DNA from: a virus
DNA length: 64,000 nt
Virus record (IMG/VR): IMGVR_UViG_3300045391_005035
Reading direction: 5' to 3' (one strand)
The position numbers and the translations under genes are program-made. Under the pieces are notes generated by a model. It saw nothing but the letters and a program-made list of their open reading frames with translations, searched no databases and had not been told where the DNA came from. The stretch's first letter is position 1, and the number at the start of each line of letters is the position of its first letter. Positions 5,228 through 49,042 of the stretch are shown here, one piece after another.

Positions 5228-6523
5228 ATGCCCTCTACGCACATCGTCGTCGATCTCGGCTTCGGCGACGCCGGAAAGGGCACCATCGTCGACGCGCTCG
5301 CGCGCCGCTGTTCGTCACCACCACTCGTGGTCCGACACAACGGCGGCGCGCAGGCAGGTCACAACGTTCACCTCGCGGACGGCCGGCACCACACGTTCTC
5401 GCAGTTCGGGTCGGCGACGTTCGTCCCCGGCTCGCGCACGCTGCTCTCGCACAACTTCGTCTTCCATCCGGCTGGACTCATGACCGAGCACGAGCACCTC
5501 GTCTCGGTTGGCGTGAAGGACGCGCTTGCGCGCCTGATGGTCGACGAGCGCGCTCTCGTCATCACCCCGTACCAGCAGGCGATGAACTGGCTGCGCGAAC
5601 TGGAACGAGGCGACAAGCGCCACGGCACGTGCGGCCTGGGCGTGGGCGAGACGGTAGCCGACTCGCTGGACGCTCCAGAGGATGTCGTCCGCGTCGGCGA
5701 CCTGCTCGACTGGGACACGCTGATCCAGAAGCTCGCGCTGATCCGCGGCCGGAAGCTCTCGCAGGTCACGGCCAGCATGCCGCGCGATGAGCACCTCGCG
5801 CTCCTTCAGAACTCCGACAGCATCAAGCGGACGGCCGACCTGCTCACGACGATCGGTCGCCAGCTCCACATCGTGCGACCGCTCCAGGTCGACCACCTCA
5901 TTCGAGAGACGCCCGACGTCATCTTCGAGGGCGCCCAGGGCGTGCTGCTCGACGAATGGTACGGCTTCCATCCGCACACGACGTGGAGCACGACGACGCT
6001 CCAGCGCGCCGAGGAGATGCTCGCGGAGGCGGGACGCGTCGACTTCGTGACCAAGATCGGCGTCGTGCGTGCGTACGCAACGCGCCATGGACAGGGTCCG
6101 TTCCCCACGGAGAGCGCGAACCTGACGCAGCTCCTGCGCGAGGTGACCAACACCGACGATGGTCCCCAGGGCTGCTTCCGCAGCGGCTGGTTCGATACGG
6201 TGTTGGCGCGCTACGCGATCGCCGCGTGTCCAGGACTCACGTCGCTCGCGGTGACTTGTCTGGACCGCTTCGCGTCAGTGGAGAAGCCGCTGATGTGCGT
6301 GGCGTACGAGGCCGACGAGCAGCGCATCGAAACGCTGCTCGCCAAGCCTGGCGACCTCGACCACCAGGAAAGACTTGGGCGTGCGATCGGACGCATGGTA
6401 CCGCTCCTCGCGAAGGCGCCGCGCGACCCGAATGAGTACACGCAGCTCCTCTCGGAGCGGCTCGCTCTGCCGGTGTCGATCCAGTCGCACGGGCCCGCAG
6501 CCGAGGACAAGCGATGGCTCTGA
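5228..6523 (+). CDS. divergent adenylosuccinate synthetase (PurA-like)
   Basis: DLGFGDAGKG, GGAQAGHNV, HGTCGLGVG, FEGAQGVLLD, RAYATRHGQGPFPTE. Confidence 0.85.
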   Translation: MPSTHIVVDLGFGDAGKGTIVDALARRCSSPPLVVRHNGGAQAGHNVHLADGRHHTFSQFGSATFVPGSRTLLSHNFVFHPAGLMTEHEHLVSVGVKDALARLMVDERALVITPYQQAMNWLRELERGDKRHGTCGLGVGETVADSLDAPEDVVRVGDLLDWDTLIQKLALIRGRKLSQVTASMPRDEHLALLQNSDSIKRTADLLTTIGRQLHIVRPLQVDHLIRETPDVIFEGAQGVLLDEWYGFHPHTTWSTTTLQRAEEMLAEAGRVDFVTKIGVVRAYATRHGQGPFPTESANLTQLLREVTNTDDGPQGCFRSGWFDTVLARYAIAACPGLTSLAVTCLDRFASVEKPLMCVAYEADEQRIETLLAKPGDLDHQERLGRAIGRMVPLLAKAPRDPNEYTQLLSERLALPVSIQSHGPAAEDKRWL

Positions 6524-18385: not shown

Positions 18386-18934
18386 CTACCGGGACGTACG
18401 CTTCAGGCGCGGCATGTCCCACGGGTCGTCCGTGGTTGCGAGGCGCCATGAGACGACCTTCGACGGATCGAACAGAACGATCCAATCCTCGTCGAACTTG
18501 CTCACGTGCGACGCGCTGATGCCGAGGCTGGTGAAGAACTCTGCGAGCGCGATTCCTCGATCGCCGGAGGCGACCTCGTAGTTCACCATCAGGTTGAGCA
18601 GCACGTTCGCTCTCACCATGCCCGGATGCTTCTCGCGCAGCCGGTCGGCGTTGCGCAGGATGTCCGCGATGATCTGCTTCTTCGCGCGCATGCCGCGCTG
18701 CTGCTCCACCCACCGCACGACGACGTCGGTCGGCACTAGCGCGTCTTCGAGCCAGACGAGCGACGGATCCAGCTCTACACGCAGAAGCGTGCGCCGTCCT
18801 TTGGCGTACGTACGTGCGACCTCACGTGACGTAGTGAAGTAGAGACCAGGGCCCTCGGCGACCCGGCCACGCTTCGCGCCGATACGTGGCCGACCCTCCC
18901 AGACCTGCGACCCGGTGTAGACGCTGATGGTCAC
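18386..18934 (-). CDS. ADP-ribosyltransferase-fold-like protein with C-terminal KRTSR tag
   Basis: VYTGS...GPGLYFTTSREVARTYA...WIVLFDP. Confidence 0.55.
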   Translation of the reverse strand: MTISVYTGSQVWEGRPRIGAKRGRVAEGPGLYFTTSREVARTYAKGRRTLLRVELDPSLVWLEDALVPTDVVVRWVEQQRGMRAKKQIIADILRNADRLREKHPGMVRANVLLNLMVNYEVASGDRGIALAEFFTSLGISASHVSKFDEDWIVLFDPSKVVSWRLATTDDPWDMPRLKRTSR

Positions 18935-20340
18935 GTCGTGATCTCCACGACGGACCGCAGCTCGCGCACGACCTCTGCGACGCGATGCGCCCACAACCAC
19001 TGGTCCCACTCACGGTCGTAGAACGTGCCGCTGCTGTCCGGGATCTCGTGCCATTCGACCGGCACGATGGTCCCGGTGTACCCGGCGGCGACCGCCCACT
19101 CCTTCGCCATCTCGACCACGGAGCGATGCCGAGCACCGGCTCCCCATGTTCCGCGATCGCTCGCGTCTGGCACCACCAGGTACGGGAACTGTGTCAGGGC
19201 GATCGTCTCTCGGCCCTTTGCTTCGCAGTACACGTACTTTTCGTCGGTGCCGCCCAGCTCCTGGTTGAGCCGTGCGAACGCTTCCGGCGTGCGGACCTTC
19301 GCCCATGGCTTCAGACGGCGCTGGATCGCGCGCTTCAGTTGGCTGGTCTTGTCGAGCGCCTCGTTGCCTTCCGACGGTCCGCCGAATGATACGCGGGGCG
19401 TACCGAGGATGGCGAACCCATGTCCGTACACGTAGTCGTCGTGCCCGTGCAGCTCGTCGAATAGATCGCGGGCCATGCTCTCCATGAACGACTTGACGGT
19501 CCCAGACCACACGTCGGTGCCGTAGACCCAAACGCTCGGGTCATCGCCACGGGATCGGTATGGCTTGAGGCTGTCGATGACCAAGCCGAGGCGCGCGACG
19601 AGGCACCCGTAGCCGAAGTTGGCGGCGGGGATCGGTCCAACTGAGAGCGATGGGAAGAGCAGGCCTCCGCAGGCGCGAATGCTGCTCGCGCGCTCGGTCA
19701 TCGGATCGTTCGGCGTGAACGACATCGAGTGCGCGACCATCACCGGAGAACCGCCCAGCATGCCCATCACTGGCTCGTGTTTCGTCGCCACGACCGGCTT
19801 CGCCGGAAAGACCAAGCATGGGTTCACGCCATGGAGCGGGCGCGATGGGCTACCGGGCGACGCGTCCCGATCAGCCACCTCGATCAGCCACCCTGGGCGC
19901 TCTGGGGTGACGGCGCGCTTCTTCTTGGCGTCCCAGTACGAGCGGACGGGCCACGGGTACCCTGGCTCGGGGATGAACGTCAGCGTGACGCTGCCCGGCA
20001 GCAGATTCGCGAGCCGCTGGAGGAACTCGGAAAAGTGGATGTTGTTGTCGTAGGCGAAGATGTCAGCGTCCTGGCCGAACACACGTCGCGCGAGCCGATC
20101 GAGCCAGCTACCGCGCATGCCGTACTCGTGGTCCTCGTCGAGCGACGGCATGTGCCCAAACAGGCGCGCCACCTTGAGTGGGTTGCCGACGAGAGCGGCG
20201 TGCAGGCCGTAGCGCTCGCTCCACACGTAGGCGTTCGTGAACGTGCCACGTCCGAAGTGCGACCCGAACTCCAACAACGACGCGCCGACGTCGCGAACGA
20301 GCTGCTGCTCTGTGAGGGGCGTCTGTGCTTCTTCTTCCAC
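18931..20340 (-). CDS. hypothetical protein
   Basis: 469-aa ORF with globular composition; TACGAT 6 nt upstream of GTG. Confidence 0.7.
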   Translation of the reverse strand: MEEEAQTPLTEQQLVRDVGASLLEFGSHFGRGTFTNAYVWSERYGLHAALVGNPLKVARLFGHMPSLDEDHEYGMRGSWLDRLARRVFGQDADIFAYDNNIHFSEFLQRLANLLPGSVTLTFIPEPGYPWPVRSYWDAKKKRAVTPERPGWLIEVADRDASPGSPSRPLHGVNPCLVFPAKPVVATKHEPVMGMLGGSPVMVAHSMSFTPNDPMTERASSIRACGGLLFPSLSVGPIPAANFGYGCLVARLGLVIDSLKPYRSRGDDPSVWVYGTDVWSGTVKSFMESMARDLFDELHGHDDYVYGHGFAILGTPRVSFGGPSEGNEALDKTSQLKRAIQRRLKPWAKVRTPEAFARLNQELGGTDEKYVYCEAKGRETIALTQFPYLVVPDASDRGTWGAGARHRSVVEMAKEWAVAAGYTGTIVPVEWHEIPDSSGTFYDREWDQWLWAHRVAEVVRELRSVVEITT

Positions 20341-20944: not shown

Positions 20945-22630
20945 CTAGTCGAACAAGATCGGTGACGCCTGCACGCCATCACGCGACACCTGCGTGAGCT
21001 TGCGTGCGCCGAGGCGTTGCAGGTATGCGTTGCGCGTCGACGTCTTGAAACCGGTCACCCTCGTCACCTCGTCGCGGCTGACGTATTCCGGGTAGCGGTC
21101 CGTCAGAGACCTCAGCACCTCGGCCTCGCCCGACGGCAGTTGGTCCAGCCAGTGCGTGAGCAGCGCGGAACCGGTAGGCAACGGCTCGAAGTCTGGTCCC
21201 AGCAGCGCGAGCGCTCGCTCCGTGGCAACGAACGGCTCGTCGCCCACGAGGCCCTTCAGCCGCAGCCGTTGCAGATACGCGTTGCGCGTCGACGTCTTGA
21301 AGCCGGTCAGCACCGTGACCTGTTCTCGCGACACGCCTGCATCGCCATGCTGCGCCACGGCCACGAGCACTGCACGCTCTCCGGAACCGAGCTGCTCTGC
21401 ATCGTCGTCGCCGAAGCGATCTGCGCCGGGCTCCGTGGTACGCCGCCGTGGTGCCGGGCGTGGCGCCGGCTGAGGCTCGCGGCTCGCGGGCTGCGCAAGG
21501 ATCGGCTTCGTGCTGAGGCGCTGGACCGTCGCGTTGATCTTGTTCGCCACCTCGTCGATCTCACCGGCGATCTTCACCGCCTCGCGGATCTCCCGCAGGC
21601 CCTCCCGCAGGTTGTCGCGTACCAGCTCGAACGCGGCGATCACGTCTCGGCCCACGACGGGCACCTCGATCGGCTTCGCGGGAGGCGCCGGCGGCGGCAC
21701 AGGCTTCGCCGCCAGCTCGCGCTTCAGCCGCGCGACCTCCTGCCGCAGCTCCTCGACCGACTTCGCGCGCTCCTCCGCCTCCGCCGGCAGATCGCTGAGC
21801 TTCGGGAGCAGGGCCTTGATCTTCGAGGTCGGCGGCGGCGGCTTGTGCGCGATCCTCGCGCCCGCCTTCGGATGCGTCGTGAGCACCGCACCGACCTTCA
21901 CCGGCACGACGCCGCGCTGGCTGAACGCCGGCCCCGAGGCGAAGAACGAGCCGGGCGTCAGCTCCTTCAGCTCGCCCCAGCGCGCCTTCGGGAACCCCAG
22001 CTCGTCCGAAGCTCGCAGCAGGTCCACGTCCAGCGACGTACGTCCGATGAGCTTGTTGTTCAGCTCCGCCGCCGCGTCCTTGTGAAGTTTCGCGATGCGC
22101 TGCGTCGCGAGCATGGCCGAGTAGCCGCGCTTCCGACCCCGGCTACACAGGTCGATCACGGCCGATGCGCTCTCCGCACTGCCGACCTGTGGACAGAACA
22201 CGTGTGCCTCGTCGACGACAACGAGCGCGGGGTGCCACAATCGCTTCGGGGCCTCGATCAGCGCTTCGAGGAATAGCCGCACGAACTGGATGCGCTCATG
22301 CGCCTTCAGCTCGTACAGGTCGAGCACCGCCGAGACGCCCAGCTCCAGCAGACGCTCGGCAAGCAGGCCGGCCGAGCGCGGATGCGCAACGGTGTCCCCG
22401 CCAGCCCGTGCGGCGTGCACGTAGTCGTACTCCTCGCGCAGCGACGCGAACTCACCTTCGGGGTCCAACACGAGGTGCTGCACCTTGCCGTGCGTCTTTT
22501 CGAGGATGTGCCGCACCGCCCAGCTCTTGCCGCCGCCGCTGTTGCTCTGCACGAGCAGACGCGTGTCCACCAGCGTGTCGATGTCGCACGCGAGCTTGTG
22601 GGCGTCATCGATATAGAACCGCTTGCTCAC
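20945..22630 (-). CDS. HerA/FtsK-superfamily P-loop ATPase with duplicated C-terminal wHTH-like repeats
   Basis: QSNSGGGKS, LDPEGEF, VVVDEAH, RGRKRG, ATQR; 2x VSR..VT..TGFKTSTRNAYLQRL. Confidence 0.85.
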   Translation of the reverse strand: MSKRFYIDDAHKLACDIDTLVDTRLLVQSNSGGGKSWAVRHILEKTHGKVQHLVLDPEGEFASLREEYDYVHAARAGGDTVAHPRSAGLLAERLLELGVSAVLDLYELKAHERIQFVRLFLEALIEAPKRLWHPALVVVDEAHVFCPQVGSAESASAVIDLCSRGRKRGYSAMLATQRIAKLHKDAAAELNNKLIGRTSLDVDLLRASDELGFPKARWGELKELTPGSFFASGPAFSQRGVVPVKVGAVLTTHPKAGARIAHKPPPPTSKIKALLPKLSDLPAEAEERAKSVEELRQEVARLKRELAAKPVPPPAPPAKPIEVPVVGRDVIAAFELVRDNLREGLREIREAVKIAGEIDEVANKINATVQRLSTKPILAQPASREPQPAPRPAPRRRTTEPGADRFGDDDAEQLGSGERAVLVAVAQHGDAGVSREQVTVLTGFKTSTRNAYLQRLRLKGLVGDEPFVATERALALLGPDFEPLPTGSALLTHWLDQLPSGEAEVLRSLTDRYPEYVSRDEVTRVTGFKTSTRNAYLQRLGARKLTQVSRDGVQASPILFD

Positions 22631-23178
22631 GCGCTCCTCATCGCGTCGACGAAGACCTTGAGGCCGCCCTGCGAATCGATGTGGTAGCTGTCGACGGTGA
22701 CCGTGCGGTAGAGCCGCTTCAGCTCCTCCGGCGAGGTCGCGAGCGGACCGTTCTCGCCGCGAAACAGCGGCCCGAGAGCCTTCGCCAGGGCACCGTCGAG
22801 CGTACCGTCTTTGAACTTCGCGTAGAGTCGCAGATCGTTCTCGCCGCGTAGGTACTGGATCACCCTGCCCGCTTCGTCGCGGTATGTGAGCCACGGGTCT
22901 TCTGGCGGCGGGCAGCCGCAGTGCCCCGCCACACGCACATCACGCCGTCCGTACGGCCGCTGCTCGTACATCTGCATCGCAACCACGATCGGCACCGGAC
23001 CCGTCGCGACCCAGTAGTACCAGGCGCGATGGAACCAGATCTGCCCGAGCCGCCCGACAATGCTCGTACGCACCTCGTAGTCGCGCGGCTCTGGCAGGCG
23101 CTCGACCTCGATACCAGCGACGAACAGCTCTTCCTCGACGAGGGGGTCGGGATCTTTGTGCCCTGCGAGATTGATCAT
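22627..23178 (-). CDS. phage hypothetical protein
   Basis: F.RAWYYW, RVAGHCGCPPP, YHIDSQ.GL. Confidence 0.65.
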   Translation of the reverse strand: MINLAGHKDPDPLVEEELFVAGIEVERLPEPRDYEVRTSIVGRLGQIWFHRAWYYWVATGPVPIVVAMQMYEQRPYGRRDVRVAGHCGCPPPEDPWLTYRDEAGRVIQYLRGENDLRLYAKFKDGTLDGALAKALGPLFRGENGPLATSPEELKRLYRTVTVDSYHIDSQGGLKVFVDAMRSA

Positions 23179-34120: not shown

Positions 34121-34492
34121 TCACGTCCACCTGAAGCCGAGTAGTGCCATGCAGAACGCCGCGATCTCCTGCGCTGGCGCGCTGGAGTGAGATGCGAGGA
34201 TGCGCAGAAACGCGTGCAGCACGGAGATGTCTCGGAACGTGATGAGCACGTTCTGCCCGCGGAAGCTGATCGTGACGCGATCGGCGAAGCCCATGCCCGC
34301 TGAGAGGTACGTCGCGAGCGTCGCTGCCTGGTCCGCTTCGTCCTTGTCGTCGAGCACCAGCGTGAAGACTTCCGGTGGTGCGCAGAGCGCGCTGTGTCCA
34401 CGCTCGTCGCGATAGCGCCAGATGTGCCGCTTGAACTCCCGGAACGGCGGGACGGTGCCAGCGGGTACGGCGAGGCGCGGAACGGCGCTCAC
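34121..34492 (-). CDS. hypothetical protein
   Basis: GTGA overlap. Confidence 0.55.
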   Translation of the reverse strand: MSAVPRLAVPAGTVPPFREFKRHIWRYRDERGHSALCAPPEVFTLVLDDKDEADQAATLATYLSAGMGFADRVTISFRGQNVLITFRDISVLHAFLRILASHSSAPAQEIAAFCMALLGFRWT

Positions 34493-35085
34493 GTCGCCAC
34501 GCTCCGCACCTTCATCATCACCTTGAAGGCGCGATCGATCTCCTCGAACCTCGCTCGCGCTGCCTCCTTCTCTTCGGAAGGTGCTCCCGGTGGCACGCGA
34601 TCGGGGTGTGCCGCGCCCGCGAGCTTGCGGTACGCCTTCTTGATCTCATCGATGGGCGCGTCGGCATCGACACCGAGCACCTCCCAAGGCTTCGGCCCCT
34701 TCGGCACGCCCGCCTCCGGCGCACGGCCCGGAGGGGCGCCGCGGGCCGCGTTTTTCGCGAAGTCGGACATGCCGTTCTTGAGCGCGAGCATCTTCTCGTT
34801 GCCCGCATGCCACATGAACTTGAAGCAGCGCTCGCACGTCGCGAAGCCGTCGCCCTTCGCGCTGATCATCGCGAGCGCCTCGAAGGGGAACATGTTGTGA
34901 CAGCCGCTGCACTTGTAGGCAGCGCGACGCAGCTCCTGCGGAATCTGCTGCATGGCGGCGCGCTGGCTGTCTACGCGGCCCTGGAAGAACTCCGTCGCGC
35001 GCTCGAATACGGCGTCGATGCCGACATCGATGGCGCGATCCAAGACGTCGTCGAGGCGTGCCTGATGGCTGGGCTTGCGAGGCAT
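34489..35085 (-). CDS. zinc finger + C-terminal J-domain protein
   Basis: PWEVLGV...EIKKAYRKLA...HPDR...F.EI..AF; CSGC/CERC. Confidence 0.85.
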   Translation of the reverse strand: MPRKPSHQARLDDVLDRAIDVGIDAVFERATEFFQGRVDSQRAAMQQIPQELRRAAYKCSGCHNMFPFEALAMISAKGDGFATCERCFKFMWHAGNEKMLALKNGMSDFAKNAARGAPPGRAPEAGVPKGPKPWEVLGVDADAPIDEIKKAYRKLAGAAHPDRVPPGAPSEEKEAARARFEEIDRAFKVMMKVRSVAT

Positions 35086-35095
35086 CCGTGTTCCC

Positions 35096-35404
35096 TCAGA
35101 TCACGACGAGCGTGGAGCCGAGCCCGGCCGCCGGCACGAGTCGCCCTCGAAGCATCATGCGCCGATCGGCGCGCACGGCGAGGCCTGCGCCAGGGTTCAC
35201 GAACCCGCCGAGTCCGTCGTCCGGGCAGCCGAGCGGAAAGGGGAGCGGTGCGTAGTTGCCGATCGCGCGACCGCCTCGCGCGTTGTACGCGACCGTCTCG
35301 TTCGGAATGATGGTCCTGAGCTGACGCGCCCAGACGCTGTGCGCATTCGCGAAGCGACGCATCGGCTGCGTGCCGGGGAGGACCTTGGCGACGTGGTAGC
35401 TCAT
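35096..35404 (-). CDS. small protein with MSY start and GLG motifs
   Basis: MSYH..., DDGLGG, AAGLGS. Confidence 0.55.
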   Translation of the reverse strand: MSYHVAKVLPGTQPMRRFANAHSVWARQLRTIIPNETVAYNARGGRAIGNYAPLPFPLGCPDDGLGGFVNPGAGLAVRADRRMMLRGRLVPAAGLGSTLVVI

Positions 35405-36279
35405 GAACGAATCCTACCCTTCTTCCGGCTGGTTCGCCGCTTCTTGCGGCTCGTTCGCTTGTTCGGGGCGACACGGCGATGCTTCATCGACGCGCTCCGT
35501 TGCGACGTAGACAGCGACGTGCGCTTCGATGGCGTTGCGGCAATCCAGTTGTCGTCGAGCGGCACGATGGTCGTGGACATGTCCTCGTGCAGCGCCGGAA
35601 AATAGAGCGAGTCGATCTCCGCCACGTGACCCACCAGCGCGGGAATCAGCTGGCCCCACCGATCGCGAGCATCGACGAGACGCACGTACACCATCTGGTA
35701 GATCGTGTACCCGTGCGTTTTATCGAAATCCGTCGTCACGTGATCGACAACACCACGTGCCCCCGCCGGAATGGTGCCGGCCAACGATTCGACCGCCGCC
35801 GAGAACTTCACGCGCGTGCCTGGCGCGTAGGTGTGCTGCACCCAGTTTCCATACGCCGCCGACGCCAGCGTCGTACCTGACAGCAGCGGTGCCGGTGGCA
35901 CCGGGTTCGGCGTCGTGTGTCGTCCTTTCCACGAACGCTTGAGCGGAACCGTCTGCGGACCCCAGTTGTCGACCAGCGGGCGGAGCGTTGTGTGGGCGAC
36001 CTCGTAGTCGACGTCCGCCCACCACTTCTCCTGGTGAGCGCCGAACAGAAGCGGTGTCGCAACTGTCGTTTCGAGCCCGAGGTCACGAGAGCTTCGATAC
36101 AGGCGTCGGACGCGAGCGACGGTGCCAGCCGGCAGGATCATCTCTTCCAGATCGTCACCGACCTTCGTGAAGAACGCGACCGGCTTCAGTAGGCGGACCG
36201 GCGTATCGACAGCGTAGGTCTTCTCGACCCAGTCGTCCCACGGCGGAATGTAGTGGCCAACCGGCGGCGGCGGGATCAC
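35401..36279 (-). CDS. tandem SH3-like repeat protein with KRTSR tail
   Basis: 2x PP..P...W...TYA..T.V.....PL.DNW; tail VAPNKRTSRKKRRTSRKK. Confidence 0.65.
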   Translation of the reverse strand: MIPPPPVGHYIPPWDDWVEKTYAVDTPVRLLKPVAFFTKVGDDLEEMILPAGTVARVRRLYRSSRDLGLETTVATPLLFGAHQEKWWADVDYEVAHTTLRPLVDNWGPQTVPLKRSWKGRHTTPNPVPPAPLLSGTTLASAAYGNWVQHTYAPGTRVKFSAAVESLAGTIPAGARGVVDHVTTDFDKTHGYTIYQMVYVRLVDARDRWGQLIPALVGHVAEIDSLYFPALHEDMSTTIVPLDDNWIAATPSKRTSLSTSQRSASMKHRRVAPNKRTSRKKRRTSRKKGRIRS

Positions 36280-37325
36280 AGGAGCCTCCTACGCTTCAGT
36301 TCGTCGTAGATCTCCTGCTGCTCTTCCGGAGACCACTGATCGTCATCGATGTGGATCGACCTTCGCGTCGACGATCCGGTAGCGTAGTCCTCGTTCGCAT
36401 CCGACTGCGTATACCATCGGGCCGGACCAGGATAGTCGCTGCCTTCGACGTGGCCGAGTTCTTCCGCGATGATCTTGGCCGCTCGCTGCGCGAACGACTC
36501 ACCCTCGTCTAGGTCGGCTGCGTCGATCTCGATGTCACTCAGCGACTCGTGATCGATCTCCGGGTACACGTCCGGCTCGCTCGCGTGCACCGTCTCGCTC
36601 GTAAACCCGAGCCGACGCGAGCCACCGAGCTGCGCGGCCGCCTCTGGCGCCACTCCACCGCCCACCGTGCCGCCGATGTAGTAGCGACAATCGCGGTTCG
36701 CGCAGTCGCGGTTCCAGATGCCTTCGAAGTAGTCGTGCGAGCCGCAGGACGGACACGTTGCGTTCGGTGCGAGCCTGCGATGCTTCATCGACGACGGCCG
36801 CGTCTGATGCGGAGCCCAGTTGTCATCGAGCGGGACGAGCCACGTCAGAATGTGAGAACCAATCGGCCGCGTCAGCAGGTTCGTGTTCTTGGCGTCGAGG
36901 AGCTTCCACATGTCCTCGATGTCGGCCGCTACCCAGCTCTGGGCTTCTCCAGGAGCCGCATCGGCGACGTACGAATACGAGCGCGCATCAACAACGCGCA
37001 CAGTGATCTGCAATGGGTAGTTATACGCATCGTTGCGCGTAACAGCGACCACCGTACCGCGCGTACCGTCGGGAACGAGCGCGGCCACGGTCGACGTCCG
37101 CAGGTCGTGTGGACCACCTGGGTACCACCCCACTCCGCCGCCCCAGAACTTCACTGGCGTCCCAGGGGCGAACGTGCGGCGCGACCACTTCTCCAGGTCG
37201 TCGACGCCGTGGGTAAGGGCCTGCGGCGGCGGAGGGATTGGGTTCTGATGAACGCGCCGGCTCGTTCGCTTCGTCGGATTCTTCGACGTGCGCTTCGGAC
37301 GCCGTGATGTACGCCGCTTCGTCAC
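36276..37325 (-). CDS. RTSR-tagged modular protein
   Basis: TKRRTSRRPKRTSKNPTKRTSRRVHQNP leader; shared repeat; LAPN then CPSC finger. Confidence 0.65.
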   Translation of the reverse strand: MTKRRTSRRPKRTSKNPTKRTSRRVHQNPIPPPPQALTHGVDDLEKWSRRTFAPGTPVKFWGGGVGWYPGGPHDLRTSTVAALVPDGTRGTVVAVTRNDAYNYPLQITVRVVDARSYSYVADAAPGEAQSWVAADIEDMWKLLDAKNTNLLTRPIGSHILTWLVPLDDNWAPHQTRPSSMKHRRLAPNATCPSCGSHDYFEGIWNRDCANRDCRYYIGGTVGGGVAPEAAAQLGGSRRLGFTSETVHASEPDVYPEIDHESLSDIEIDAADLDEGESFAQRAAKIIAEELGHVEGSDYPGPARWYTQSDANEDYATGSSTRRSIHIDDDQWSPEEQQEIYDELKRRRLL

Positions 37326-37918
37326 CAGTCCTCGTCGCCGCGGTCCCGCTCGGACCACTCCATGTAGCGTTCGTCCTCGTTCCAGTGCTCGTAGGGGCGC
37401 ATCATGCGCGCTCCCAGCTCGCCCAGCAGCTCTTCGACGACCTGCATGCGCAGCCCGGTGTCATCGCCGTGCTTCTTGTCGTTCTGGTAGAACTCGTCCG
37501 TGAACTTCTGATGCTGTTCGAGCACCTCGGAGGGCCACTGTCGCTGCGGCTTGTTCAGGACGTTCTCGTCGAACGGCGCGCCTTGGCCGATCTGTTCCTG
37601 AACCCACAGGCCGAGCTTCTCGTCGGCGTAGTCGGCCGCGCGATCGGCCATCGCGTCGGCTTCTGCCTCGCGGTCCTCGTCTGACCTGAACGAACGCTCT
37701 TCGAGCTTCGAGTTCAGGTCGTTCCATTCGCTCGCGAGCTTGTCGATCATCTCGCGACGAATCTTCGCCCTCAGGTCGTTCTCGTCCTCGGGCTCGCGAT
37801 CGTCGCTGTACGACCAGCCGCGCGTCGGGGCTCGGTAGTTGCTCCGCAGTGATGCTCCCGGGGAACGCTTGCTCGTTCGGCGCTTGCTCGACTTCTTCTT
37901 GCTCGTTCGCTTCGTCAT
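37322..37918 (-). CDS. RTSK-tagged acidic protein
   Basis: MTKRTSKKKSSKRRTSKR...LRSN then strongly acidic body. Confidence 0.65.
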   Translation of the reverse strand: MTKRTSKKKSSKRRTSKRSPGASLRSNYRAPTRGWSYSDDREPEDENDLRAKIRREMIDKLASEWNDLNSKLEERSFRSDEDREAEADAMADRAADYADEKLGLWVQEQIGQGAPFDENVLNKPQRQWPSEVLEQHQKFTDEFYQNDKKHGDDTGLRMQVVEELLGELGARMMRPYEHWNEDERYMEWSERDRGDEDW

Positions 37919-41008: not shown

Positions 41009-41776
41009 TCAGAGAACGTCGCGCGAGTGGATGCCGTCGATCAGGTACTTGATGTCCTTCTCGATGTCGTCCGTGCCGGCGACCGACACGTCGCCGGTCG
41101 AGAGGGCCGTCTGACCCGTGGTGATCGCCGCGAGCGGACCGACGCTGCCGTCGATCAGGCCCAGGAGCTGCTCCTGGATGCTCGCGCCCGGCGCCTGGCC
41201 CATCTGGGCGAGCGTCGCGATGCACTGGAAGCCCTGACGGGGCGGGATGAGGATCGGACGCGCCAGGCGCATCAGCGCCGACGACGTCGGCACGCCGTTG
41301 TTCGCGCGCGGGAGGCGCGAGTCGGCGAAGAAGCCGTCGAGGCCGCCGGCGAACGGCGTGTACGCCGTGAACGTCGTCAGCTGCGGCTTGTCGCCGGCCT
41401 GGAACTGCCAGAACAGCTGGTTCTGGCTCTGGTGGTAGAGCTTGTGGACGCGCATCGTGCGGTCCGGGAACACGCCCGGAACCGAGCCGACGGACTGCGT
41501 CGCGCCGGCGACGGTGTAGGTGGCCTCCGGGTTGAACCGGAAGTAGCACCAGACGCGCACGGCGAGCGTGATGAACGTCTGATCCGACGGGAAGGTGCCA
41601 CCCGTCGTGAGGTTGCTGACCGCCAGCTCCGCGCCCGAGCGCAGGAAGAGCTGCACGCGGCTGGAGAGCTGGTTCGCGCCCGGGTTCGCGCGGAGGTCGA
41701 CGTGACCGTCCGTGCGGATGAGGCTGTCGTAGAAGGGCTGGTGGACGCGCTCGCGCGTTCCGACGATCTTCGGCAT
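41009..41776 (-). CDS. putative major capsid protein (single jelly-roll-like)
   Basis: QPFYDS...SNL..GG.FP..Q.F...AVRV...NGVP...L.RPILIP....F...YLIDG..SRDV; very strong C/G third-position bias; long 5' leader. Confidence 0.55.
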   Translation of the reverse strand: MPKIVGTRERVHQPFYDSLIRTDGHVDLRANPGANQLSSRVQLFLRSGAELAVSNLTTGGTFPSDQTFITLAVRVWCYFRFNPEATYTVAGATQSVGSVPGVFPDRTMRVHKLYHQSQNQLFWQFQAGDKPQLTTFTAYTPFAGGLDGFFADSRLPRANNGVPTSSALMRLARPILIPPRQGFQCIATLAQMGQAPGASIQEQLLGLIDGSVGPLAAITTGQTALSTGDVSVAGTDDIEKDIKYLIDGIHSRDVL

Positions 41777-41969
41777 GTTCGTTCTCACTCCCGGAGCTGT
41801 GCTCCGTTACGTATCGCCCGAGACCCCTCGGGTGATGTCCACGCCAAGTCCACTACCTGGCACCCCACGATGTTCGAATCCTTTTCAGGGGATTCTTTCT
41901 GCGACCCGGAACTCCCTCGTGGTCAGAGAGCTTTCACCCGTCGGCTACCGGGTCACAGGAAGTCTTGTG

Positions 41970-42732: not shown

Positions 42733-45039
42733 TCAGGTCAGCGAGCCGCCGAAGATCGAGCGGGCGAAGATGCCGCCCTCGCCGGTGCGACCCTCGGACG
42801 TCACCATGGACGTCTTGATGGGCAGCGTGCGGTGCATGACGCTGGTGACCTCGCGCGCCATGTCGATCGGCTGCTCGATCGACACGAACGGCGGCTGCTG
42901 GAGGCCGCCGGGGCCGACCGGCGGCGTGAGCGTCGGGACCGCGATCGGCGAACCGACCACGCCCGGCGTCCCCGCGTCACCCATGCCGGCCGCCGCGTAC
43001 ATCGTGCCCATGCCGGCCGCCGCCTCGTAGGCGCCGACGCCCGCGGCCGCTTCCATGGTGTCCATCAGGCCGTCGACCGACGCCTGATCGCCCATGCCGG
43101 CCGCCGCGTACATCGTCGGCGATCCGAGGCCGCCGAGCGGCTGGTCGACGTACTCGCCCATCGGCTGATCGACGTACTCGCCCATCGAGGGGTCCTGCAC
43201 GTACGCGCCGAGCGGCTGATCGACGTACTCGCCGAAGCCCGCGCCCCAGCGACCGAGGTACGGCGCCGCCTGCGTGCCACGCAGGAGCCGCACGGCGACC
43301 GCGCAGCCCATGCCCGCGACGATCGGCGTGAGGTTCTGGCGGAGCATCGCCGGCAGCTTGCCGCCGAACGCGATCGCGAGACCCGCGACGCCAGCGCCGA
43401 CGAGCGACTTCGTGACGATCGGGTCCGCGCGACCCGCGTCGAGCATGTTCGTGATCGCCGGGACGCCAGCGGCGAGGTTCGCCGCTGCGTTCGCGGCCAT
43501 CAGGCCGCCCACGGCGTACGCACCCGGGATCGCGACCTGGTTGATCGGATCGACGCCGAAGATCGTCATGTTGCGCATCAGCACGTAGCGGTTCCGCTTC
43601 ATGCCCTTCGAGTGACGACGACGACGGCCGTTGCGGCTGACGTGCTTCTTGCTGTGGCGCTTCCGACTGTTCCGACGCATCGAGGACCTCCCGTTCGCGC
43701 TCACGCGCTTCTTGCTGTACCGCTTCTTGCTGTACCCGGACCGCATCGCGCGGGCGTGGGCATCCGACGCCGCTCCACCGAAGTGGAACTTGCGCACGTA
43801 GGCGCGCTCGCTCACGTGCCCCGGCACGTAGACGGCGTAGCCCTTGCGCTTGCTGCGCGGGCCGAACTCGACGAGCTGCACGCGCTGCCCGGTCGGGAGC
43901 CCACGACGCTGGCTGACGCGGCCGAGCATGTTCGCCGCCATGCGGATGCCCGCCGCCCGACGCTTCGGGTGCTTGCTCGTGATGTGGATGTACGGCGGGT
44001 TGAAGAGCCGACCGGTGCGGAACGGCGACGCCGCGAAGCCCTTGACGCGCTTGTAGCCGCCACGTGCCTTCGACGTCAGGTGGAAGCGTCCGTGCTTGCG
44101 GCTGAGACGACCACGCTGCTGCGCCTTGCGGCTCGCCCTCGCAGCGACCGCCGCAGCGGACTCGGCAGCCTTCGCGGCGCGACGCGCCTTCGCGGCGGCC
44201 TTGTTCGCCGCCTTCTTGGACGACTTCTTCGCCTTCTTCGCCTTGCTCGTGGCCTTCGAGGCGGCCTTCTTCGCCTTGCTCGCATGCTTGCGTGCGCTCG
44301 CGGCGGCCTTGCTCGCGACCTTCTTCGACGTCGCCTTCTTCGCCTTCGACGCGGCCTTCTTCGCAGCGCTCGCCTGCTTGCTCGCGCTCTTCGCAGCCTT
44401 CGACGCGGCCTTCGCCGTCACGCGGCCGCCGGTCACGGTCGCCGCCGACTTGCTCTTCTTGTGCGACCGCTTCGAGGCCGACGCGAGAGCGCTCGACACG
44501 CGCTTGCGCTGCGCGCTCGTCATCGACGCGAACGCTGCCTGCGGACCCGTCGCCTTGCGTCCGCCCTTCGAGCGCCGCCGACCGCTTCCGACGTCGATGC
44601 CGCGAGCCGCGGCCTTCACGGCCTCGCGATCTGCGGTCGACATGTTGCGACGCATCGCACGCTTGAGCGCCTTGAGGTTGTACGCCATCGAGCTTCTCCC
44701 TGTGTTCCGAAGGACCTGCTTGCGGCTCATGGGACGAGCCATGACCGTTCCCCACTCGTCGACCGCGACGAGGCGAGCACCGTTCGAGTCCGCGTGCTTC
44801 TCGGCCCAGCCGCGGGCACCGCGCACCGTTCGATACGCAGGACTGAGACGCTGATTGCGACCACGCGTCGCGCCGCGGATCCACTGAAATGGATTGCGCA
44901 CAGGCGGGCGACCAGGGTTGATCACCGTCATGTGCGTAACGCCGCCCACGTTCGGCTCCATGCCGGGGCTGCGCTCGTACTTCCGAGCGACGGACTTCGT
45001 GCTCTTGCGGTAGACCAAGGCCATCTGGACGCAACTCAC
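42733..45039 (-). CDS. histone-H1-like basic core protein fused to TM region and GEYVDQP/AAAGMG repeats (putative polyprotein)
   Basis: long K/A/S/R-rich tract, many [VLM]xxN junctions, ~3 TM, acidic repeats; start could be 45024. Confidence 0.75.
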   Translation of the reverse strand: MSCVQMALVYRKSTKSVARKYERSPGMEPNVGGVTHMTVINPGRPPVRNPFQWIRGATRGRNQRLSPAYRTVRGARGWAEKHADSNGARLVAVDEWGTVMARPMSRKQVLRNTGRSSMAYNLKALKRAMRRNMSTADREAVKAAARGIDVGSGRRRSKGGRKATGPQAAFASMTSAQRKRVSSALASASKRSHKKSKSAATVTGGRVTAKAASKAAKSASKQASAAKKAASKAKKATSKKVASKAAASARKHASKAKKAASKATSKAKKAKKSSKKAANKAAAKARRAAKAAESAAAVAARASRKAQQRGRLSRKHGRFHLTSKARGGYKRVKGFAASPFRTGRLFNPPYIHITSKHPKRRAAGIRMAANMLGRVSQRRGLPTGQRVQLVEFGPRSKRKGYAVYVPGHVSERAYVRKFHFGGAASDAHARAMRSGYSKKRYSKKRVSANGRSSMRRNSRKRHSKKHVSRNGRRRRHSKGMKRNRYVLMRNMTIFGVDPINQVAIPGAYAVGGLMAANAAANLAAGVPAITNMLDAGRADPIVTKSLVGAGVAGLAIAFGGKLPAMLRQNLTPIVAGMGCAVAVRLLRGTQAAPYLGRWGAGFGEYVDQPLGAYVQDPSMGEYVDQPMGEYVDQPLGGLGSPTMYAAAGMGDQASVDGLMDTMEAAAGVGAYEAAAGMGTMYAAAGMGDAGTPGVVGSPIAVPTLTPPVGPGGLQQPPFVSIEQPIDMAREVTSVMHRTLPIKTSMVTSEGRTGEGGIFARSIFGGSLT

Positions 45040-45711: not shown

Positions 45712-46380
45712 TCAGCCGTCGATACCTTCCTTGAGCACTCGCAACTTCCCCCCCTTGAGAATACAGAGGAATCCTGCGTCTCCGTTCGGCTGCGGCTTCG
45801 GAGAGAACACTGCGAGCGTGTGTCCATCCGGAGCCGCGAGCAGCCACGTGTTACGTGGGTTCACCTCGTGAATCTGACCGTCGTCGTCACGACGGACGAA
45901 CAACCCGAGGCAGTAGCCAAGGCGCGCCCATGCCGACGACGGCGGCAGCGACACCCTCTCGACGCCCGCGTTGCGCTTCAGCTGCGCCTCCGCGAACTTG
46001 GCGTTTTCGTAGAGCCGGACGCCCTTGCCTTCGCGGTATTCGCGACCTTCGTAGGGCTCGTGCCGGTGCTTGTAGTCGGTGTCGACTTCCTCTTCGCCGT
46101 CCTTCGTCCACTTGCTCGACCGGTACATCACCGAGAGCGCGTCGCCGACTGGGACGATCTGCGTGGGCGGGTTGTACGGCACGCGAACCACCATGCGCGG
46201 TGCCTTCTGCTGAAAGATCTCGTACCGATCCATCGCTCGGTCGAGCGCGGTGCCAGCGGCGCCGTGGATCTTGTCAGGATCGATCTCCGTTCCGAATGTC
46301 CGCGCTTCGACGGTGCGATTCGGCTTGAGCTGACGACTCGCTCGACGACCTCGGCTCGACCTCTTGCTCGTGCGCTTCAT
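45712..46380 (-). CDS. RTSK-tagged protein
   Basis: MKRTSKRSSRGRRASRQLKPN; Y.S.KW...Y.H.H...GG.L.V...GI.G. Confidence 0.65.
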   Translation of the reverse strand: MKRTSKRSSRGRRASRQLKPNRTVEARTFGTEIDPDKIHGAAGTALDRAMDRYEIFQQKAPRMVVRVPYNPPTQIVPVGDALSVMYRSSKWTKDGEEEVDTDYKHRHEPYEGREYREGKGVRLYENAKFAEAQLKRNAGVERVSLPPSSAWARLGYCLGLFVRRDDDGQIHEVNPRNTWLLAAPDGHTLAVFSPKPQPNGDAGFLCILKGGKLRVLKEGIDG

Positions 46381-46706
46381 CGACGCCTCCACCACCATGC
46401 GGCCGCCGCCCCGACGAGACCGCCGATCGCGTACTTCTTGAGGTCGTCGTTGCTCGGCATGTCGAGACCGAGTCCCGCGAGCGGACCGGTGCCTCGCACG
46501 CGAACCTCTCCGCGGCACATGTGGTCGTAGCCGACGAACTGTGCGTCGGACGGCAGCGGATTCATCTGCGTGTCGGGGTCCGCGCCGAGACGGCCGACGT
46601 TCCGCGGTCGCGGTGGCTTCGGATCGTCACCCACGGAGGCGGGACGGGCGTCGCGATAGATCGCCCACGAGTTGCGGTCCCAGTCCCAAACGGAGTACAG
46701 CGCCAT
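46377..46706 (-). CDS. small C-terminal TM protein
   Basis: LAGLG then TM and WWWRRR. Confidence 0.65.
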   Translation of the reverse strand: MALYSVWDWDRNSWAIYRDARPASVGDDPKPPRPRNVGRLGADPDTQMNPLPSDAQFVGYDHMCRGEVRVRGTGPLAGLGLDMPSNDDLKKYAIGGLVGAAAAWWWRRR

Positions 46707-46770
46707 CGGTCCCTTCCTCGGTGACCAAGCGTGCCCGACGTCAGAGTAGCATGGTGATCGTCGACGCCGC

Positions 46771-47376
46771 TTATTTGTTCGCTCGACGCGCGCCGAGCCA
46801 ATCCCTCGCAGAGAACGGTCGCCCTTCGTTCCCACTGTTGCGTCGCATCCGGCTCGGATGCGTCTCCAAGCCGTGGCGACGCAGCAGTGCTTCGACGTTG
46901 CGAACCTGGCGCGGCGCGCCGAGGTCATTGCTGACGTAGACGGGCGGCACGTTCTTGTCCGGCGACCTGAAGACCAGGTGGCCGGAGCGAGTGTGCTCGA
47001 TCTCCCAGCCAGCTTCGCGCGCCATGTCTTCGATGCGTCGGATGTCGCTGCCGCCGCGCCCACGACTGACGCGCTTGCCGCCGTTCGCGCGCAACGGGTT
47101 CTTCTTCGCTGCCCACCATTCGTGGTCGAGCTTGGCGGTCGCGTCTTCGAGCGCCTCGATCTTCGCGTCGAACACGAGCTTCTCGCGGTCCCAGTCGTCC
47201 CACCGCTCCGCCTTCATCAGCTCGTACATTCGATCGCGTCGCTGCTCCTGAAGCCTCGCGATCTTCTCGTTGATGGGATCGGCTTCCTTGCGGATCTGCG
47301 CTCGCGTCCGGCCTGCGTTCGGGCGAACCTGACGACTCGTGCGACTTGCGATCTTGCGTGATGTTCGTCGCGCCAC
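46771..47376 (-). CDS. RTSR-tagged protein with HicA-like domain
   Basis: AREAGWEIEHTRSGHLVFRSPD...VYVS...RNVEALLRRHG flanked by LRAN and MRRN. Confidence 0.65.
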   Translation of the reverse strand: MARRTSRKIASRTSRQVRPNAGRTRAQIRKEADPINEKIARLQEQRRDRMYELMKAERWDDWDREKLVFDAKIEALEDATAKLDHEWWAAKKNPLRANGGKRVSRGRGGSDIRRIEDMAREAGWEIEHTRSGHLVFRSPDKNVPPVYVSNDLGAPRQVRNVEALLRRHGLETHPSRMRRNSGNEGRPFSARDWLGARRANK

Positions 47377-47378
47377 GA

Positions 47379-48566
47379 CTACCTCTTCGAGGACTTGACC
47401 TGTACCGCAACCGGTACGCCGACGAGCGTCTTGGCGTACTCCTCGACACGGAAGTAGCTCCGACCTTGGTCGTCGATACCGCGCACGATGACCGGGAACT
47501 TCGGGTCGAAGTTGTCGACGATCCAGTGGTACTCGCCCACCTTCGAGGCCCCGATCCTCGTCGACGTCATCGCGCCCTTCAGCGACGCGTTCTTGAACTG
47601 GACGATCGCCTCGCCCTTCTTCGGCCCGTAGCCGTACTTGTAGAGCCCTGGAGGCAGGCGCTTGAACTTCGCCGCTACACCGGGCGGCAGCATGTCCGCC
47701 ATCGTTGTCGGATGACCCTCTTGACGAACGAGCGCGATCGAGTTCCAGACGTCCATCTCGCTCAGCTTGTTGGTCGAGAGATGACGCCCGTTTCGACGAA
47801 TCGGCTCCGAGTGCCACGGCGTGATGTGCGCCTGCCTCAGAGCTGCACCGAGGCTGCGGATCTCGCTACGCTGCGATGGCGTCGCGAAGTCGGCGAGCGC
47901 CTCGATGTGTGCGAACGCGTCCTGTGCGCGCCACGAGTCGCCAGCGCGGAGAGACGACCATGCCTGGGTCAGCTCGCGCTCCAGCTCGTGCTCCAACATG
48001 TCGAGCCGTTCTCCGCCACGGTTCGACTGGAGACGAACACGATCACGCGGTTCGAGCGACAGGTGCGAGTGGCCTCGGCCGTCGATGACGTAGGCGCTTC
48101 TCATCGACGGATCGCCGAGCCACCGAGCCATCGCCGTCTCGCGCATCGCGCCGACTGGACCTGCCCCGAACGCATGACGGTGCCCAGCGCTGTCCACGCC
48201 GATCGCGCGGTACAGCGGAGGCGGGTTGCGTGAAATGCGGCGACCGTTCTTCCTCGGCGGCAAGCCCTTCAACTCGCGCCAGATCGGCTCGTACTTCTTC
48301 GTCGGCGAGATGATCACGGCGAACGATGCTTCGCCGGCGCGGCTGCGCGATGGCACTTCGCGGACCTTCGCGGTGAAGGTGTCTCGGTACGCCGTTCGGA
48401 GCATCGTGGCCTGCTTCTCGGCCTGCTCGCGCGTCTTGAACCGTGATTCCTCGTGCTCCAGCACTTCGCGCGGCGCGGAGCGCTTCGAGCGGAACATCCC
48501 GAAAGCGTTGCGCGAGACGCGGCGAGCGTTGCGGCTGGTCCTGCGACGTGACGTGCGCTTCACCAT
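47379..48566 (-). CDS. RTSR-tagged multi-module protein
   Basis: modules separated by VSRN, ISRN, LQSN, IRRN, LSTN. Confidence 0.65.
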   Translation of the reverse strand: MVKRTSRRRTSRNARRVSRNAFGMFRSKRSAPREVLEHEESRFKTREQAEKQATMLRTAYRDTFTAKVREVPSRSRAGEASFAVIISPTKKYEPIWRELKGLPPRKNGRRISRNPPPLYRAIGVDSAGHRHAFGAGPVGAMRETAMARWLGDPSMRSAYVIDGRGHSHLSLEPRDRVRLQSNRGGERLDMLEHELERELTQAWSSLRAGDSWRAQDAFAHIEALADFATPSQRSEIRSLGAALRQAHITPWHSEPIRRNGRHLSTNKLSEMDVWNSIALVRQEGHPTTMADMLPPGVAAKFKRLPPGLYKYGYGPKKGEAIVQFKNASLKGAMTSTRIGASKVGEYHWIVDNFDPKFPVIVRGIDDQGRSYFRVEEYAKTLVGVPVAVQVKSSKR

Positions 48567-49042
48567 AAAAACCAACCCTTCTTCTTCGGAGCTGCGGCAT
48601 GGGCACGCGCCGCCTCTTGGACGCCAGCGTTGCGTGCTGCGGTGATCAGGCGCTCGATGCCGTCCTGCGCGCTGTTGATTAGCTCACCACTCCGGAAGCA
48701 TTGCTCCGAGTTCGTGTCTTCGCAGTTCAGTTCGAACGCCACTTCAGCGAGCATCGCGGCGCGGACGAATGTGTGCGCGGCTGCCTGAAAGTCGTAGGTT
48801 GTCCAGGCGCGTTCCGCTGCCGCCTCGGCCTTGCGGATCATCGCCGCGGCCTCGTCGAGCATGGTCTCCAGATCGTCGCGCAGAAGATGCCTGGCCTCGT
48901 CCTCCCGTTGCCGGAAGTCGCCGAGATGATGCTCATGCATCTCCGGGATCGTCGAGTTGCGGACGGGCTCGTGCACGCGCCTGCTCGTGCGATTCTTCGC
49001 GCTACGCGGAGCGCGACTGGTCCTTCGCGCCGCGCGAGCCAT
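48560..49042 (-). CDS. RTSR-tagged helical protein
   Basis: MARAARRTSRAPRSAKNRTSRRVHEPVRN. Confidence 0.65.
   Translation of the reverse strand: MARAARRTSRAPRSAKNRTSRRVHEPVRNSTIPEMHEHHLGDFRQREDEARHLLRDDLETMLDEAAAMIRKAEAAAERAWTTYDFQAAAHTFVRAAMLAEVAFELNCEDTNSEQCFRSGELINSAQDGIERLITAARNAGVQEAARAHAAAPKKKGWFLW

Follow-up and report, generated by a model that had tools for sequence, protein, structure and literature searches.

What joins a set of otherwise unrelated viral proteins that all bear the same kind of short basic tag? The question is raised by a locus in a 64,000-nucleotide stretch of DNA (hereafter the window) from IMG/VR virus record IMGVR_UViG_3300045391_005035. Between positions 45712 and 49042, the minus strand of the window encodes four soluble proteins, each with an N-terminal (K/R)RTSR-type basic leader that ends in Asn. 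A first-pass annotation of this DNA had interpreted them as 'cargo' polyproteins, one including a HicA-like RNase, that are packaged through their basic tags, released by cleavage at xxN sites and delivered at infection. The analysis partly supported that interpretation as a whole. The motif [V/L/I/M]-x-x-Asn was found at the borders of tags and modules, and these modules are shuffled among related viruses irrespective of their order; particle loading, cleavage and delivery would explain this arrangement.

Four tagged, modular proteins

The tagged genes and their parts are the following.

48560-49042, minus strand: g160, a 29-residue basic leader (MARAARRTSRAPRSAKNRTSRRVHEPVRN, 48956-49042) followed by module S (48563-48955).
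47379-48566, minus strand: g398, 395 residues from an ATG at 48566 (MVKRTSRR); this start matches that of database protein P0152.
Parts of g398, minus strand: leader, 48507-48566; M1, 48246-48506; linker GRRISRN, 48225-48245; M2, 48021-48224; M3 (a three-helix bundle), 47790-48020; linker GRHLSTN, 47769-47789; C module, 47382-47768.
46771-47376, minus strand: g201, with a GTG start at 47376 confirmed by the 80%-identical homologue P0002, which begins MARRTSRK.
Parts of g201, minus strand: leader, 47317-47376; helical hairpin A, 47083-47316; basic mini-linker plus HicA-like module H, 46837-47082; C-terminal tail, 46774-46836.
45712-46380, minus strand: g268 as re-called, 222 residues; leader MKRTSKRSSRGRRASRQLKPN (MKRTSKRSS start), 46318-46380, followed by module K, 45715-46317.

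In the four proteins no segment resembles a membrane span (maximum Kyte-Doolittle value for any 19-mer ≤1.09, compared with 1.6-2.2 in neighbouring membrane proteins), which agrees with their earlier description as soluble. The layout proposed for g201 was seen in the sequence in full: the leader MARRTSRKIASRTSRQVRPN (to residue 20) is followed by a helical module, LRAN (98), the basic stretch GGKRVSRGRGG, the GW...RSGHLVF module and MRRN (180). About four modules parted by xxN linkers had been proposed for g398, and four were found, separated by RKN-GRRISRN-P, LQSN and IRRN-GRHLSTN. A g398 start at 48575 was considered and dropped for the ATG at 48566, as called in P0152. The open reading frame (ORF) listed earlier as 45712-46518 almost certainly starts at ATG 46380, and was re-called as g268.

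The [VLIM]xxN motif at the ends of tags and modules

Relatives were found via the capsid-like gene g259 (41009-41788), which led to ten IMG/VR loci (66-72% identity) on contigs of 9-298 kb; scans of IMG/VR with peptide patterns from g201 and g398 yielded no direct relatives. Among the 192 proteins collected, 52 bear (K/R)R(T/S)S(R/K) tags. The [VLIM]xxN motif is real and goes beyond chance: in the four proteins of the span, 13 of 33 Asn residues occur within it, compared with 5.8 ± 2.1 in residue shuffles (P = 0.002), and in the 52 tagged family proteins V, L, I or M occupies position -3 for 56% of 206 non-redundant Asn residues in basic context. For the control residues Q, D, H, T, G, S, E, P and A the corresponding values were 4-19%. 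The residue that follows the motif Asn is variable (A, R, G, P, V or T). Homology breakpoints lay ≤6 residues from a motif Asn in 39% of 271 cases, which are not independent of one another, compared with 16% for random positions.

The conserved module K, which ends ...LRVLKDGIDG, recurs at 37-49% identity, always C-terminally, in nine of the ten related loci; the tenth (L001) covers only ∼1.4 kb upstream of the capsid-like gene. The leaders ahead of it differ between loci but finish LKPN, LRPN, MRPN or LQAN, and in locus L009 it is the final module of an 817-residue protein, behind three KRTSR...N linkers. The motif also occurs in arrays in the giant basic protein encoded nearby.

42733-45039, minus strand: g768, a giant basic protein; its Arg-rich units all terminate in [VLM]xxN (VSAN, MRRN, VSRN, MKRN, LMRN).

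The g768 relatives (L008 6320-9034; L006 6136-8955) contain tandem 14-mers such as SRRRRSRRTSVRRN, three of them in a row in L008, as well as C-terminal GEYVDQPMG repeats and a membrane-like region. By its sequence, g768 looks like a poly-protamine precursor.

Module borders and shuffling

AlphaFold2 (AF2) models placed the motif between folds. For g398, the predicted local distance difference test score (pLDDT) was <50 at residues 1-34 and 67-123, dipped at 256-264 and exceeded 90 at 185-245 and 270-381, i.e. in a confident three-helix bundle (M3) and a confident alpha/beta module (C); M2 was modelled weakly and the leader and M1 with low confidence. N259 and N266 are in the dip between the two folds with pLDDT >90. 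In g201, Asn 20, 98 and 180 are in low-confidence segments flanking two confident folds. Comparison of five homologues showed no change at N114, N182 or N259 of g398, although the neighbouring linker residues vary. The reading that xxN sites lie between modules and not inside confident folds is supported by these pLDDT dips, by the three invariant junction Asn residues and by the permutation, fusion and fission of modules with breakpoints at Asn. The earlier proposal that xxN sites and domain borders coincide is thus supported, apart from some copies of the motif inside C and K.

The modularity of the tagged proteins is supported by about 50 relatives in which the same modules are split, fused or order-reversed, with breakpoints at Asn. 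P0154 and P0155 (the L007 protein) begin at M2, and their leaders end VRSN or IRAN where the window has an internal ...ISRN; the L007 leader ...KRIRAN-SPPPLY corresponds to the internal ...RISRN-PPPLY of the window. The order M2-M3 of the window is M3-M2 in P0177 (joints VVRN-RGGERLD and VVAN-KGAPPSVY), H-C in P0003 is C-H in P0158, and both M2-M3-C and M2-M3-S arrangements occur. In P0172, the closest relative, module S (the body of g160) is fused in frame behind M2-M3 via ARN-ARRRTSRSRSGFQRRVVRN-N, so that what is a gene leader in g160 is there an internal linker. The partners fused to H comprise a Nudix module (P0013), DNW-repeat domains (L007, P0006, P0018), a membrane span (P0012), and a DUF3140-like domain together with a membrane span (L006); in L003 the DUF3140-like domain accompanies Nudix. 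In L003 (3539-4750) a QLRAN joint precedes the fused NUDIX hydrolase module (Pfam E = 2e-14), which stands free in L006 (3730-4167) and is joined directly to H in P0013.

The motif stays with the unit that precedes the joint and is found only where another unit comes next. As an internal module H ends in GLxxN; as the last one (L007, P0008, P0018) it stops at GL(D/K)V and has no Asn.

Elsewhere in the window (36276-37358, minus strand), a protein has the leader ...KRRTSRRPKRTSKN-PTKRTSRRVHQN-PIPPPPQ, like that of the L007 DNW-repeat protein that ends in a HicA-like module. This likeness indicates that shuffling reaches beyond 45712-49042. Two other searches concerned the modules themselves: the ESM Atlas gave no usable lead for g268 or module C, and the list returned by a VIA-wide search with g398 was filled by generic three-helix bundles.

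The HicA-like module H

HicA is an mRNA interferase with a catalytic His. The only Pfam match of g201 was HicA_toxin (PF07927), at 14.4 bits (E = 0.041), below the curated cut-off of 27 bits; three relatives independently matched the same family below threshold (14.5-17.9 bits, E = 0.0033-0.04). In PHROGs, H matched phrog_2089 (E = 6.7e-7), the function of which is not annotated. When 1.8 billion representatives were searched with a profile of five sequences, 3988 matched at E ≤ 1e-3, including many stand-alone proteins of 64-85 residues; of ten stand-alone members sampled, seven had a sub-threshold HicA_toxin match and one reached the cut-off (27.0 bits). Against PDB sequences the H profile reached HicA only at E = 0.6-0.8, which is not significant, and an hhalign comparison with one canonical HicA was not significant either, with His133 paired with the canonical His. 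Whole-model Foldseek searches with the g201 and g398 models returned no match at E ≤ 1e-3. By sequence criteria, then, H does not qualify as a member of the HicA family.

The fold gives a different picture. In the AF2 model of g201 (85-row alignment), the leader (1-22) is disordered, residues 25-92 form an antiparallel helical hairpin (pLDDT about 96) and the basic linker (98-106) has low confidence; H itself consists of a helix (107-121), three strands (125-128, 133-137 and 146-149) and a second helix (155-167), with pLDDT 90-97. This alpha-beta-beta-beta-alpha arrangement, similar to that of a double-stranded RNA-binding domain (dsRBD), matches four solved HicA chains over their whole length. 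G123, W124, H133, R156, N160, L165 and G169 are ≥90% conserved among the 85 aligned sequences, and His133 (of RSGH) is the first residue of strand 2 in the model. Since AF2 gives a helix, three strands and a helix as in the solved HicA chains, H is predicted to have a HicA/dsRBD-like fold with a conserved His. The first-pass description of the module as HicA-like can therefore be kept as to fold and His, and not as to the Pfam score (14.4 against 27 bits). Activity as an RNase is a putative function of H.

Within this virus group most copies of H sit in multi-module proteins with KRTSR-type tags, and the junction motif follows H wherever another unit comes next (the window, P0002, L003, L006, L008, P0004-P0020).

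The missing HicB partner

The absence of a HicB antitoxin close to H, as reported earlier, was borne out: the neighbouring ORFs of the span have no HicB/UPF0150 match, a search against NCBIfam gave no matches, and tblastn with the HicB-like module of a relative found nothing in the 64-kb window, the search being confined to this part of the virus genome, with some 112 kb outside it. PF15919 and PF21748 were likewise absent (at E ≤ 1) from the complete relatives G001-G003, which carry H. This absence weighs less than was first implied, because stand-alone phage relatives of H are also without an annotated HicB neighbour. Such relatives, annotated 'HicA-like toxin', occur in Microbacterium, Streptomyces, Mycobacterium and Rhodobacter phages; in the two loci inspected (NC_073431.1 23307-23504 and OP186293.1 107225-107422, from Microbacterium and Rhodobacter phages), the gene sits among nucleotide/DNA-metabolism genes and has no annotated HicB neighbour. 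The antitoxin-less state looks typical of this HicA-like subfamily rather than special to the window.

A different arrangement was seen in the fourth complete relative, the 298-kb L009, which has a HicB-like gene (5250-5704, plus strand; UPF0150-like, E = 2.5e-4, below the cut-off) with an N-terminal KRTSR-type tag (MKRTSRNTPSKRTSRRLLKS), directly followed by a canonical 61-residue HicA (PF07927, 28.7 bits, above the cut-off). In this case the tag is borne by the antitoxin-like partner and not by the toxin.

Genomic context

The window has a G+C content of 66% and is part of a ∼176-kb (176,411 bases) soil-virus contig. Among the sequencing runs listed, the stretch occurs in soil metagenomes, the best of which may be the sample of origin, and in no RNA run. 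No cultured relatives of g259 or of the window's H module were present in 50,697 phage records. The four tagged genes are part of a virus morphogenesis block, a long co-directional minus-strand series that includes small membrane proteins, two capsid-sized beta-rich genes and the giant basic protein. At least 12 window proteins carry a (K/R)RTSR-type tag at the N- or C-terminus, mostly in this capsid/membrane-protein block. No terminase or portal gene was seen in the window, in which no search was aimed at either family; ThyX, a 5'-3' exonuclease and RtcB are encoded there. Other features are listed below.

46377-46706, minus strand: conserved 109-residue gene between g201 and g268, beginning MALYSVWDWDRNSW (MALYSVWDW...), with a short hydrophobic C-terminus and a WWWRRR end.
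14578-17061, 18386-19009 and 35401-36279, all minus strand: proteins with a C-terminal KRTSR tag, preceded by Asn in two of them (VRSN-KRSKKRTSRRIAA and VAPN-KRTSRKKRRTSRKKGRIRS).
20945-22894: HerA/FtsK-type packaging ATPase of the morphogenesis block (DUF87 + Zot).
5228-6523, plus strand: adenylosuccinate-synthetase homologue (E = 3e-69).
34489-35085, minus strand: DnaJ-domain protein with a zinc ribbon (Pfam E = 3e-12).
57647-58204, minus strand: transglutaminase/papain-fold protein with Cys-His-Asp motifs (Pfam Transglut_core, E = 6.2e-4, 20.5 bits, cut-off 23).

The 109-residue gene had been missed in the earlier gene list; it has homologous ORFs in L006 (4222-4584), L007 (4918-5271) and L008 (4421-4771), and the re-called start of g268 overlaps its stop codon as ATGA. 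Two of the three C-terminally tagged proteins are encoded outside the capsid block. The adenylosuccinate-synthetase homologue could be PurA, or a PurZ-type enzyme as in base-modifying phages.

A candidate processing enzyme

The only candidate processing enzyme found was the protein encoded at 57647-58204, which may, by its sequence, be a protease. Its gene is a core gene of the same block as the tagged proteins, with copies 64-71% identical in all four complete relatives, and its DCD, HTHVF and LDPV motifs are kept in the copies of the two relatives compared. Pfam detected no peptidase family in g160, g201, g398, g268 or seven related cargo-region proteins.

Proposed cleavage after Asn and the alternatives

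In these soluble cassette proteins, basic (K/R)RTSR-type tags and small folded modules alike finish with [V/L/I/M]-x-x-Asn wherever another unit follows. The hydrophobic P4-like position, the fixed P1-like Asn, the loose prime side, the disordered linkers, the bracketing of tags, the tandem arrays and the loss of the motif at true C-termini together give this arrangement the look of a maturation-protease code. It is because of this layout that we favour a reading in which the tagged proteins co-condense with DNA through their tags and are then cleaved after Asn to release the modules. The protamine-like tags would associate with the genome or with the giant basic core protein and thereby bring the attached modules into the particle interior by co-condensation; a virus-encoded maturation protease would then cut after Asn (P1 Asn, P4 hydrophobic), freeing the modules along with short basic peptides; and the freed soluble modules would enter the host with the DNA (in this virus the HicA-fold module, for example; in its relatives, modules of the Nudix, HicB-like and DUF3140-like kinds). 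We give this reading a probability of only about 0.45, because no standard or Asn-specific protease was found in the four complete relatives and the only candidate is sub-threshold.

Several points weigh against it. Legumain-type (C13), adenain-type (C5), C48 and S78 proteases were absent at E ≤ 1 from the four complete relatives, in a protease-family search that left out the T4 gp21 type (U9/S77). The papain-fold candidate scores below its Pfam cut-off and could be a cross-linking transglutaminase instead. Pro follows ∼9% of the motif Asn residues, and many endopeptidases do not accept Pro there. The leader of g160 ends in PVRN, which is not strictly [VLIM]xxN, and copies of the motif also occur within folded modules (IVDN in C and three in K). 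M1 and M2 were modelled poorly, so that the case for fold borders around them is one of homology only. Finally, order-free modules are equally expected of proteins that are never cleaved.

That last point belongs to the main rival, which we consider possible: the Arg/Ser/Thr-rich tags may be permanent, flexible linkers that bind nucleic acid or form condensates, like Arg/Ser (RS) or arginine-rich motif (ARM) segments, with the modules strung along them like beads and tethered to viral DNA or to a replication or assembly compartment. The [VLIM]xxN motif would then be a docking or capping motif rather than a cut site. Independent modules in any order and the low predicted template modelling scores (pTM 0.40-0.48) fit this explanation just as well, and it accommodates both the lack of a recognised Asn-specific protease gene and the Asn-Pro sequence at some joints. 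It leaves unexplained, however, why each tag is bracketed by the motif (RKN-GRRISRN, IRRN-GRHLSTN), why last modules lose the Asn, and why conservation is confined to the non-prime side, as in protease sites.

Another explanation, unlikely by our estimate, is that the junctions are scars of recombination. Tag-coding DNA at the starts, ends and joints of genes would serve as micro-homology for cassette exchange and in-frame fusion, and the motif would be the conserved end of an ancestral leader used for targeting alone, of which the internal copies remain unprocessed. The swap of leader and linker between close relatives (g160 and P0172; L007 and the window) speaks for such an origin, as does the alternation of fused and split states for Nudix, module S and module K. 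On the other hand, no consistent combination of an in-frame start codon and a ribosome-binding (Shine-Dalgarno) site was found at the joints of g398 and g201, and the idea that these are fused genes with retained start sites was rejected. Folded modules that are not leaders also end in the motif (M2 in ...LQSN, M3 in ...IRRN, H in ...GLxxN), and Asn is invariant while its flanks drift, which points to selection on the peptide. Scars would moreover account for the shuffling but not for the existence of the tags; as an origin of the joints, they are compatible both with cleavage after Asn and with uncleaved linkers.

Least probable of all is that H is an ordinary cytoplasmic phage HicA-like protein, active in host shut-off or in defence or counter-defence, that was fused by chance and is neither packaged nor delivered: its large family (3988 representatives at E ≤ 1e-3) does include stand-alone members among the DNA-metabolism genes of tailed phages with no annotated HicB neighbour, but in this virus group H lies in the late capsid/membrane-protein block, mostly in tagged multi-module proteins and with the junction motif after it whenever another unit follows.

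Comparison with known systems

The closest parallels to packaging through tags followed by cleavage come from systems that load proteins into the virus head. In phage T4, the targeting tag is removed at a short motif that has a hydrophobic residue upstream of P1 (L/I-x-E). The T4 internal proteins, unrelated effectors with only a capsid targeting sequence in common, are packed into the head and injected together with the DNA (PMC3012670). The likeness to T4 IPI-III and Alt and their gp21 prohead protease thus consists of a short shared terminal peptide on otherwise unrelated proteins, with a conserved putative cleavage motif, here [VLIM]xxN, at the border of the tag. The tags described here differ in being strongly basic and in occurring internally and C-terminally as well, the motif ends in Asn instead of Glu, and the proteins are multi-modular; a T4-type protease, portal and terminase were not encountered in the window, where no aimed search was made, and loading and cleavage are putative here. 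The prohead protease of phage SPN3US cuts the propeptides of ejection proteins, some at several sites, at a motif with a preference for Val at P4 (PMC10052503). phiKZ and SPN3US (prohead proteases gp175/gp245) are similar in that many proteins of the head interior are cut at a short motif and the cargo lies within the packaged genome. What their substrates shed, however, is a long acidic or neutral propeptide, cut off at A-x-E-type sites; there are no shuffled cassettes, and the viruses are tailed.

Adenovirus pVII and pX (Mu) are core precursors from which adenain releases Arg-rich, DNA-condensing peptides at (M/I/L)XGX-G, a site with a hydrophobic P4, the substrates being bound to DNA in the particle. 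In contrast, P1 would here be Asn and not part of a Gly-based code, and the four complete relatives have no C5 or C48 homologue. Legumain (C13) cuts after Asn, and cleavage after Asn, even at an Asn-Pro bond, matures the capsids of viruses with asparagine peptide lyases (nodavirus alpha; reovirus mu1, N42-P43). The peptide lyases cut one site in a folded, assembled capsid protein, whereas the sites described here are many and are located in disordered basic linkers; a C13 homologue is missing from the four complete relatives. With type II HicA of HicAB systems, H shares the alpha-beta-beta-beta-alpha fold; its conserved His at the start of strand 2 may correspond to the catalytic one. It differs from type II HicA in a distinctive TPSD-x-R-x3-N motif, the lack of a HicB partner and the tagged, multi-module setting.

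Polyvalent proteins of phages and conjugative elements combine several conflict-related domains in one polypeptide, which is predicted to accompany the invading DNA and in some cases is processed by a peptidase (Iyer et al. 2017; PMC5512222). Several unrelated conflict-type domains per polypeptide are also found here or in relatives. Polyvalent proteins, however, are very large, usually contain an embedded zincin-like or assemblin-like peptidase, for which Pfam gave no counterpart in the present cargo proteins, and mostly belong to phages with a portal and terminase or to conjugative elements. HicA (0 occurrences), basic tags and an Asn junction motif are not mentioned in that work (PMC5512222).

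Implications

The tagged cassette proteins are a real and unusual variant of virion cargo and polyvalent-protein systems, with a peculiar junction code, an orphan HicA-fold module and a putative mechanism. In its widest form, which we offer tentatively and regard as doubtful, the proposal would be that a lineage of large prokaryotic viruses from soil and freshwater, which probably contain a membrane and have no tail, uses an undescribed maturation code: protamine-like (K/R)RTSR tags would load any module onto the genome, and a protease with P1 Asn and hydrophobic P4, possibly of the papain/transglutaminase fold, would cut every junction to release DNA-condensing peptides and a changeable cocktail of injected effectors (a HicA-fold RNase, Nudix and others).

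Should the tags indeed load cargo and the Asn motif be a cut site, both the virion-maturation code and the specificity of its protease would be new, in a virus group of which no member is in culture. Such a system would also be a natural plug-and-play means of packaging arbitrary proteins with DNA, comparable to the T4 capsid targeting sequence, which is already in use for protein delivery. The modules would then form a catalogue of small, mostly uncharacterised proteins possibly sent into soil bacteria at the onset of infection, including an antitoxin-less HicA-fold protein. Even without cleavage, the residue-exact shuffling of these cassettes is a clear case of domain-level recombination in viral proteins.

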